A stretch of DNA of 64,000 bases. Origin: a plasmid. The stretch is from sequence record NZ_CP022047.2, one strand, 5' to 3'. Position numbers and translations under genes: made by a program. Below the pieces are notes generated by a model. That model did no database searches, was not told the DNA's origin, and saw only the letters and a list, made by a program, of their open reading frames with translations. Positions 26,170 through 26,283 of this stretch are shown here, piece by piece. Positions within the stretch are counted from its first letter, which is position 1; each line of letters begins with the position of its first letter.

Positions 26170-26207
26170 CTTAACTAATCACATGTTACATGTAACATGT
26201 GATTAGT
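26170..26207. promoter_or_regulatory. 38-bp perfect palindrome TAACTAATCACATGTTACATG|TAACATGTGATTAGTTA plus three further GTTACAT(G) half-sites to 26245; operator/centromere-like site upstream of repA
   Basis: Exact self-complementarity checked base by base. Related palindromes occur at 31701-31754 and 34068-34122. Confidence 0.7.
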
Positions 26208-26283
26208 TATTTGTTACATGTGATTTATATAATGTTACATTATTTGTTGTGTATTTAAGTTGAATTTGTTACTCTAAAAATAG

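Follow-up and report, generated by a model that had tools for sequence, protein, structure and literature searches.

A 64-kb, AT-rich (29.5% GC) stretch of plasmid DNA (accession: NZ_CP022047.2; hereafter the window) carries long palindromes containing ACATGT upstream of the replication initiator gene repA, the partition ATPase gene parA-2 and an aquaporin gene, raising the question of which protein recognises them and what the sites do. Its replication and partition genes find their closest counterparts on Mammaliicoccus, Staphylococcus and Macrococcus plasmids. The initial annotation, made by reading the sequence, suggested that a single ribbon–helix–helix (RHH) protein, either of the two partition adaptors encoded nearby, could bind all three sites in the manner of the omega/ParG-type global repressors, co-regulating replication, partition and cargo. 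The central part of that proposal, an RHH adaptor acting at several dispersed sites of which one lies on the parA-2 promoter, is the best supported explanation, the sites being built from unspaced heptads like those of omega parS (PMC9499535). Judged from sequence and by analogy with omega, the palindromes are likely to be unspaced-heptad parS sites, both centromere and operator, for dimers of ParB-2, the partner of the Walker ATPase ParA-2.

The existence of the three palindromes (P1–P3) was confirmed with an inverted-repeat finder and by sequence reading, with slight correction of their coordinates and, for P2, of the length, and a weaker fourth site (P4) was added (Table 1). P2 and P3 are the longest short-spaced inverted repeats of the whole window, with P1 ranking sixth. 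The 8-mer TCACATGT occurs nine times on the two strands of the 64 kb, every occurrence falling inside P1, P2, P3 or P4; in shuffled sequences the mean was 2.7 and the maximum 8, with none of 100 shuffles reaching nine. The half-site first described, ATCACATGT(T/A)ACA(T/A)GT, is present in P1 and P3, whereas P2 carries the related but not identical GTGACATGTTACTTGT.

P1, P2 and P3 are composed of 7-bp units placed back to back, contiguous and in one register, with a core unit TGTWACA and with the runs of P1 and P3 bounded by AATCACA/TGTGATT; ACATGT arises because it is the junction of two TGTNACA units. When heptads were defined in relaxed form (N[AG]TNAC[AT] or its complement) and counted in in-register runs, runs of at least four were found in the window only at P1 (seven), P2 (four) and P3 (five), while 200 first-order Markov simulations of the window produced no run of four or more and a mean of 0.075 runs of at least three. 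Independently of the heptad scan, Tandem Repeats Finder reports periods of 7 and 21 at P1. The 'three extra direct half-sites' previously noted after P1 are part of this array where TGTTACA TGTGATT (26212-26225) and TGTTACA (26233-26239) are concerned, these being in the P1 register, whereas TGTTACT (26267-26273) is out of register. TGTNACA may be read as a two-fold-symmetric form of WATCACW, with the G/C at positions 2 and 6 mirrored, a form that would suit a symmetric RHH dimer.

Table 1. Coordinates and composition of the palindromes, heptad arrays, genes and promoter candidates of the window, and of corresponding arrays in related plasmids.
Feature	Replicon	Coordinates	Strand	Description
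P1	Window	26172-26209		Perfect 38-bp palindrome, arms TAACTAATCACATGTTACA and TGTAACATGTGATTAGTTA; core of the rep-proximal heptad array; initially annotated at 26170-26207
P2	Window	31699-31756		58 bp; 28-nt arms (31699-31726 and 31729-31756), 100% complementary, 2-nt centre; initially annotated as 54 bp, 31701-31754
P3	Window	34065-34119		55 bp; 27-nt arms (34065-34091 and 34093-34119), 1-nt centre; initially annotated at 34068-34122
P4	Window	28242-28273		Weaker fourth site, arms TAAAACATGTGATTAT and ATATTCACATGTTTTA, 94% complementary; absent from the initial annotation
P1 heptad array	Window	26177-26239		Seven contiguous units at 26177-26225 (AATCACA TGTTACA TGTAACA TGTGATT AGTTATT TGTTACA TGTGATT); the next slot does not match and is followed by TGTTACA at 26233-26239
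P2 heptads	Window	31714-31741 (core)		TGTGACA TGTTACT TGTAACA TGTCACA; degenerate flanks (AGAAACA) and (TGTTTCT); register start 31707
P3 heptads	Window	34075-34109		AATCACA TGTAACA AGTTACT TGTTACA TGTGATT; flanks (TTATACA) and (TGTATAA); register start 34068
P4 layout	Window			TAAAACA TGTGATT atat ATTCACA TGTTTTA; two diverging half-sites, 4 bp apart
Candidate parA-2 promoter inside P2	Window	31727-31756	+	-35 TTGTAA (31727-31732), 18-nt spacer, extended -10 TGtTATAAT ending at 31756; 10/12 matches, TG present
Mirrored promoter-like site, P2 left arm	Window	31699-31726	-	GTAACA, 16-nt spacer, TGtTATAAT; points at a TetR-family gene (start 31591)
parA-2	Window	31787-32578	+	Walker-type partition ATPase; likely true start GTG 31787; Pfam AAA_31/CbiA
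parB-2	Window	32588-32830	+	80-residue omega-like adaptor, predicted RHH, proposed binder of the heptads; likely start ATG 32588; strand S-T-T-M-R-V-D, then two helices
par-1 operon	Window	24186-25291	-	parA-1 (24497-25291); DUF5388 adaptor ParB-1 (24186-24500)
repA	Window	26476-27489	+	RepA_N-type initiator, downstream of P1; homologues annotated 'replication initiator protein A'
Antisense RNAI unit, repA leader	Window	26286-26399	-	Promoter TTGATA-17-TATAAT at 26399..26371 (11/12); hairpin and T-run terminator at 26320..26286
Best aquaporin promoter candidate	Window	34145-34173	+	TTGATA-17-TATAAT, 11/12 matches; -35 lies 26 bp downstream of the P3 end
Rep-proximal and parA-promoter palindromes	M. 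sciuri pK8D55P-fosD; S. aureus camel plasmid			Rep-proximal palindrome AATCACA TGTTACA TGTAACA TGTGATT (5 units in the camel plasmid), plus a parA-promoter palindrome
Promoter palindrome	pAVX			Promoter palindrome only, within the 130-bp repA-parA gap
Direct-repeat heptads	pSSP1			AGTAACA TGTTACA TGTAACA x7, in ~95-bp direct repeats
Variant heptads	pAQZ2; S. aureus 359 plasmid; pIVK83			As in pSSP1, in variant form
Tandem heptad repeats	pBac115 (L096, NZ_KM613043.1)	8326-9415		Nineteen tandem 59-bp repeats of 4 heptads each (TATCACA AATCACA AGTAACT AATCACA), beside rep
parA operator	pBac115	11372-11392		Separate site of 3 heptads

Ten loci encoding members of the ParB-2 family were compared, nine with an intact annotated parA/ParB-2 pair and one, in S. 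simulans (L089), without an annotated parA. A search of related plasmids had been named from the outset as a test of the proposal, and the motif is present in them: each of the nine intact loci has a run of at least three heptads directly 5′ of parA, and no heptad run occurs at the S. simulans locus. The architecture of P2 recurs 5′ of parA in pAVX and in two further loci (L001 and L002), and in pAVX the mirrored arm of the promoter palindrome faces repA. On complete plasmids, runs of at least three are mostly linked to rep/par, with one in pAVX, two in the S. aureus camel plasmid and four in pK8D55P-fosD (two of them ~3 kb from rep/par). In the last of these (L094), extra heptad palindromes at 27493-27527 and 27720-27752 bracket an unannotated open reading frame for an acidic product of ~40 residues (27567-27695), beside a MarR-family gene.

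The 59-bp repeat array of pBac115 looks like a large dedicated omega-type centromere in Macrococcus. This plasmid has no RepA_N protein, its Rep being a primase-C-terminal-domain protein, and the arrays thus go with the par module rather than with the initiator. The Macrococcus ParBs are 48–50% identical to ParB-2 and carry a strand SATIRVR, nearer to the KTVRVR of omega; beside them stands AATCACA AATCACT TGTGATT, which occurs verbatim in the 7R parS of pSM19035, and from these sequences heptad specificity appears to move with the ParB protein. For comparison, the surroundings of 80 other ParA genes, 555 kb in all, were examined as background, a set holding no staphylococcal loci and gathered by a ParA-2 scan that matched mostly the generic Walker A motif; it contains only three runs of at least three heptads, two of which lie in the two closest ParA-2 homologues outside the Staphylococcaceae (plasmids of Lactobacillaceae), by a gene for a ParB-like protein of 79 residues (strand KPLRVRE) flanked by TTGTAAY/AGTAACT heptads. 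The heptad-reading family evidently reaches beyond Staphylococcaceae. The ParA proteins of these two plasmid contigs (L004 and L005) are 45–46% identical to ParA-2; L005 (Levilactobacillus yonginensis) carries arrays at 320-380 and 1471-1505 (TTGTAAY; GATTACA AGTAACT TGTAACT ...), 5′ of parA and over the 3′ end of the 79-residue gene, and L004 a similar heptad array at 3102-3129, ~240 bp downstream of parA.

Type Ib partition modules combine a small Walker ParA (~260 residues, KGGxGK[ST], no N-terminal helix–turn–helix) and a small adaptor gene directly after it with a repeat centromere beside the operon that doubles as operator. The par-2 operon has this organisation, ParA-2 being a protein of 263 residues with the Walker motif NFKGGVGKTT and parB-2 starting 10 bp past the parA-2 stop; the repeats stand beside the operon at P2 and in each of the nine homologous loci, where their centromere role is predicted. 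The placement of the second palindrome on the parA-2 promoter, 33 bp ahead of the start codon, was correct for a start at GTG 31787 (MSVITIGN...), as in homologues, and with its corrected boundaries P2 ends 30 bp 5′ of this codon. The -10 of the parA-2 promoter is kept in homologues, and because the P2 palindrome takes in the -10 box, a leftward promoter-like site is mirrored in the opposite arm. The best NCBIfam match of ParA-2, and likewise of ParA-1, is PrgP; against this model the two score 150–180 bits, compared with an equivalog cut-off of 400, and are relatives rather than orthologues. At the DNA level parA-2 is 81–82% identical to parA genes of Mammaliicoccus and Staphylococcus plasmids. 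Megablast homology to the parA modules of relatives starts near the P2 centre (31718-31727); the rep-proximal and parA-promoter palindromes are ~90 bp apart in relatives, and P1 and P2 are 5.5 kb apart here, with repA between them. The palindromes may, on this comparison, mark a rearrangement break point.

In PLSDB, at least 110 complete plasmids (Staphylococcus, Mammaliicoccus, Macrococcus) encode a homologue of ParB-2, and a large protein collection holds 116 clusters of such homologues, annotated mostly as 'plasmid replication-associated protein' and once as 'ribbon-helix-helix domain-containing protein'. The best small-protein matches of a ParB-2 profile among 177,635 PDB sequences are RHH proteins, namely MazE7 (E 0.0048) and omega (2bnw/1irq; E 0.027–0.048), and hhalign pairs ParB-2 with omega at 80% probability over 40 gapless columns (residues 41–80 against 26–65); T44 and R46, both invariant in the family, fall opposite T29 and R31 of omega. 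In omega, R31 has a role in DNA reading. The T29A substitution is described as an essential DNA-binding mutation of omega, with loss of specific binding and a shift of parS affinity from ~5 nM to ~1.5 µM (PMC3074150). Among 17 aligned ParB-2 members there are weak matches to the RHH families Antitox_RHH (10), CopG_antitoxin (8), HicB (3), RHH_1 (1) and RHH_3 (1); single-sequence PDB searches with ParB-2 and ParB-1 returned noise only, and neither the two adaptors nor the RepA of the window are represented by an NCBIfam model. In the family alignment the N-terminal motif GFLDxIDTSxVKYTENY (residues 20–36) is nearly invariant, with Lys31 invariant, and can also be made out in ParB-1 (SLLN...K) and the ParB of Levilactobacillus; this motif is a candidate peptide for ParA contact and ATPase stimulation.

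The omega protein of Streptococcus pyogenes pSM19035 (inc18) binds unspaced WATCACW heptads with one dimer per heptad, at six parS sites of 7–10 contiguous heptads over the promoters of copS, delta (parA) and omega, and at least four contiguous heptads are required for ParA ATPase activation (PMC9499535, PMC4627068). Shared between this omega/delta/parS system and the window are unspaced 7-bp repeats of mixed orientation in several dispersed arrays, an array over the parA promoter, arrays beside replication-control genes and a small ParB that, as predicted for the window, is an RHH protein whose disordered N-terminal tail contacts ParA; the heptads of the Macrococcus relatives do fit WATCACW. 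The window differs from pSM19035 in that its core TGTWACA is two-fold symmetric (position 2 is G, position 4 is W), in that its arrays are laid out as long perfect palindromes, and in the closest relationship of the ParA partner, which is to PrgP of pCF10; its replicon combines RepA_N with an antisense RNAI in place of the inc18 CopS/RNAIII, and no toxin–antitoxin operon was seen under these sites.

By analogy with omega we infer that one ParB-2 dimer would occupy each heptad, inserting a two-stranded beta-ribbon into the major groove, and that neighbouring dimers would pack side by side over at least four contiguous heptads to form a nucleoprotein filament. Such a filament would be the partition complex that stimulates ParA-2 and, where it covers a promoter, would repress transcription. 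At P2 this would provide autoregulation of the par-2 operon and, via the mirrored arm, probably also control of the leftward promoter to the TetR-family gene. P1 is a conserved rep-proximal array that is probably a centromere and may modulate repA transcription, and P3, an array of the rep-proximal type, is probably an additional centromere; with seven and five heptads, respectively, both would be expected to stimulate ParA-2 in that capacity.

Other partition systems share parts of this organisation. The modules RepB/RepC (Enterococcus faecalis pAD1) and PrgP/PrgO (pCF10) resemble the window in that a ParA-type gene, followed by that of a small adaptor, diverges from the gene of a RepA_N initiator. 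The pAD1 and pCF10 modules contain short iterated intergenic repeats bound by the adaptor; the pAD1 iterons are 8-bp TAGTARRR units and not heptads. ParG/parH of TP228, pB171 ParB and pCXC100 ParB likewise feature a small RHH adaptor after a Walker ParA/ParF, and upstream repeats that serve as centromere and operator (PMC3130281, PMC3074162), although TP228 parH consists of degenerate tetramer boxes with AT-rich spacers and not of unspaced heptads. ArtA of S. aureus pSK41 is also a staphylococcal plasmid RHH protein acting at several promoters, including par, and its operator letters are similar (ACATGACATG; PtraA, TTACATGACATGACATGTAATAC) (PMC2777438); however, the period of the ArtA sites is 5 bp (CATGA), a single dimer binds them, and pSK41 uses ParM/ParR, ArtA not being the centromere-binding protein. 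As a candidate for the window, the ArtA operator was rejected, with no occurrence on either strand and a period of 5 bp against 7. The arrangement proposed for ParB-2 is therefore of a kind already known, a type Ib module whose RHH adaptor reads unspaced operator heptads, and calls for no new mechanism; by analogy it would work as omega does, but its heptad consensus places it outside strict membership of the omega group, and the homology is marginal. In the literature searched there was no paper dealing with heptads of type Ib par systems from staphylococci and no experimental characterisation of the TGTWACA heptad, of the long perfect palindromes or of the staphylococcal spread of the ParB-2 family, a lack of experimental characterisation likewise stated in a 2021 paper (PMC8407400).

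Several observations weigh against ParB-2 as the reader of the heptads. The support for it comes entirely from sequence, and since ParA and ParB-2 always occur together, genomics alone cannot tell which of them reads the sites. Of the window heptads only the outer units of P1 and P3 (AATCACA/TGTGATT) fit the omega consensus WATCACW, and the inner TGTWACA, TGTSACA and AGTTACT do not; many plasmids with a ParB of 66 residues have only three contiguous heptads per repeat, below the functional minimum of four for omega. P4 has a diverging, gapped geometry, and P3 and P4 lie off promoters. The homology to omega is marginal at the PDB-profile E-values given above and an identity of ~23%, and Pfam Omega_Repress does not match ParB-2 at E-values up to 10. 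The AlphaFold2 (AF2) monomer model of ParB-2 has a mediocre mean confidence (predicted local distance difference test, pLDDT, 69.6), with an extended segment and helices at 49–60 and 66–80 but no strand called, and Foldseek of this model against the PDB found no match, a blank that is expected because the monomer is half of an obligate dimer and the RHH strand forms in the dimer only. The DUF5388 family, moreover, shares the T-[LM]-R-V strand but has different repeats, and the strand motif alone is therefore no predictor of specificity.

The last point bears on ParB-1, the DUF5388 adaptor, which the initial annotation had admitted on equal terms with ParB-2. Binding by ParB-1, alone or together with ParB-2, would mean that two partition systems share centromeres; its layout is like that of ParB-2 (N-terminal motif, strand and two helices, with Q-T-T-L-R-V-K against S-T-T-M-R-V-D), and P1 is placed between parA-1 and repA. 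P1 is, however, 880 bp from parA-1, with a flank homologous to par-2-type plasmids, and the parA-1 promoter region has a distinct palindrome of its own (13-nt arms, 25437-25467, TAATACAACTGAC...GTCAATTGTATTA). Three plasmids with ParB-1 homologues, including pWBG749, contain no heptad run of at least three and carry other repeats 5′ of parA, such as TGCATACATTATGC and TGTGTAAATTACA, whereas the arrays track ParB-2; 'either adaptor' was thus too loose, and a part for ParB-1 at these sites is very unlikely. Least credible of the explanations weighed is that the palindromes are operators of SarA-like (winged-helix) or TetR-family regulators and not partition sites. A TetR-family gene (start 31591) does diverge from P2, and P2, P3 and P4 have SarA-like genes less than 1 kb away, but the arrays in pAVX, pSSP1, pAQZ2, the camel S. 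aureus plasmid and others always stand by parA/ParB-2, with annotated flanks that lack such regulators, and neither the SarA-like paralogues nor the TetR regulator is associated with the motif in the other plasmids compared. The MarR-family gene near the pK8D55P-fosD array is unrelated to the SarA-like protein of the window. To our knowledge, an unspaced 7-bp periodicity over 28–49 bp is also atypical of TetR/MarR operators.

A different kind of explanation holds that the palindromes function through hairpins in DNA or RNA, whether as terminators, cruciforms, a mimic of the origin of transfer (oriT) for relaxase-in-trans mobilisation, or recombination hot spots. All four sites fold strongly as single strands (P1 -22.7, P2 -37.8, P3 -31.6 and P4 -14.2 kcal/mol; z-scores -4.4 to -12.3), DNA homology to relatives starts near the centre of P2, and hairpin-rich oriT mimics are common near rep/par of staphylococcal plasmids (PMC4652767, PMC8407400). 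P1 and P2 are flagged as terminator-like by a scanner, yet stand upstream of genes and not at gene ends; P4 lies between convergent genes with A- and U-tracts, a loose fit to an intrinsic terminator, in which a GC-containing hairpin with a 3′ U-run closes a transcription unit; and P3 has a T-run 5′ and an A-run 3′ on both strands, making termination impossible there. Homologous plasmids often carry direct, non-palindromic heptads (seven-fold in pSSP1, nineteen arrays of four in pBac115), so the conserved feature is the heptad and not the hairpin, and a hairpin function is accordingly judged unlikely as an account of the sites. The cruciforms raised in the initial annotation are physically and energetically possible on these folding energies, although no evidence calls for them. 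An oriT mimic was tried and rejected: the pWBG749-family core CTTATGCTCTT (from PMC4652767) has no match in the window at up to one mismatch, and the three-hairpin layout is missing.

The par-1 operon is a second complete partition module, divergent from repA, and probably has its own specificity; two type Ib systems of apparently different specificity on one plasmid suggest a cointegrate history. P1 itself lies between parA-1 and repA, starting 304 bp and ending 267 bp 5′ of the repA ATG. The repA upstream region (26150-26480) has a mean column identity of 82% with those of M. sciuri pK8D55P-fosD and the S. aureus camel plasmid, and for this reason P1 is taken as orthologous to their rep-proximal palindrome ('palindrome A'). 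Compared with these homologues, the P1 region of the window has an insertion of 14–15 bp corresponding to two heptads, heptad number varying in whole units. The antisense unit of the repA leader fits the ~83-nt RNAI control of pSK41-type plasmids (PMC5703833). A consensus search and alignment to homologues gave no confident placement of the repA promoter: TAGTTA-18-TATAAT, with its end at 26233, and TTGTGT-17-TGtTACTCT, around 26247-26275, are both weak and unconvincing candidates. P1 may plausibly influence repA transcription. Within repA, 3.7 tandem copies of a 15-bp unit, ATATAAATAATACTA (27011-27066), code for NTNINN-like repeats and are possibly the internal origin (Rep boxes) of a RepA_N plasmid, an origin expected to lie within repA as in pSK41-type plasmids.

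The suggestion that cargo is co-regulated through these sites is unsupported, P3 standing beside and not on the aquaporin promoter and P4 between two convergent gene ends. A terminator-like hairpin (34037-34065) precedes P3. Since P3 stands upstream of the promoter rather than on it, its position lends no support to aquaporin regulation, and since dispersed arrays are normal in the ParB-2 plasmid family, P3 is taken as one more of these. Camel S. aureus plasmids provide the only match to the P3 core, in their rep-proximal palindrome, and aquaporin homologues elsewhere are without P3. P4, with its A-tract/hairpin/U-tract fold, may be merely a terminator, and as a heptad site it is read as degenerate and possibly non-functional. 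A host box of CRP/Rex type (TGTGA..TCACA) was excluded for P4 by inspection, the spacing being 8 and not 6 and the halves of P1–P3 standing in the opposite order.

A more far-reaching role, in which ParB-2 would be a plasmid-wide regulator, is speculative and rather unlikely. Heptad arrays would here have spread beyond rep/par to accessory loci, coupling cargo expression or local DNA architecture to occupancy by the partition complex; the symmetric TGTWACA could let dimers bind either way, so that one operator could serve twin divergent promoters, and the palindromes might be break points of par-module swaps, the last idea arising because homology to relatives begins near the P2 centre. Examples of the arrangement envisaged are P3 ahead of the aquaporin promoter, the mirrored promoter of P2 directed to the TetR-family gene, and the two arrays near the MarR-family gene in pK8D55P-fosD.

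Several of the ParB-2 plasmids examined carry resistance or virulence genes, among them pK8D55P-fosD (erm(B), aac(6')-aph(2''), dfrE, fosD) and pAVX. Reading the ACATGT palindromes as omega-like heptad arrays yields testable predictions of parS and operator sites across this plasmid family, together with a simple rule for finding centromeres, namely at least three in-register TGTWACA/AATCACA units. The series formed by Staphylococcus, Macrococcus, Lactobacillaceae and omega also offers natural variation in specificity for work on heptad recognition by RHH strands and on what sets plasmid incompatibility.

The window contains other palindromic features. A second family of perfect palindromes, (TA)ATACCGGTCAAAAGGG nnn CCCTTTTGACCGGTAT(TA), has copies at 18381-18415 and 19590-19628, ~1.2 kb apart, which may be an operator pair of some regulator; the only plasmid matches of the region between them are to a staphylococcal 'hypothetical protein'. 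There are three more long perfect palindromes: an AT-rich one of 42 bp lies at 14613-14654, and one with an A-tract/hairpin/T-tract at 11863-11901 looks like a bidirectional terminator. The third, of 35 bp (27765-27799, TATAATATAAGTAAACA t TGTTTACTTATATTATA), is located 48 bp 5′ of the first of the SarA-like genes (27847-28179), whose paralogue at 30627-30977 shares 49% protein identity with it and which is followed by a third at ~34930-35259. Two TetR-family genes (29147-29695 and 31025-31591) are found in the same region, with a pair of genes for SMR-type small membrane proteins (29943-30596) between them.

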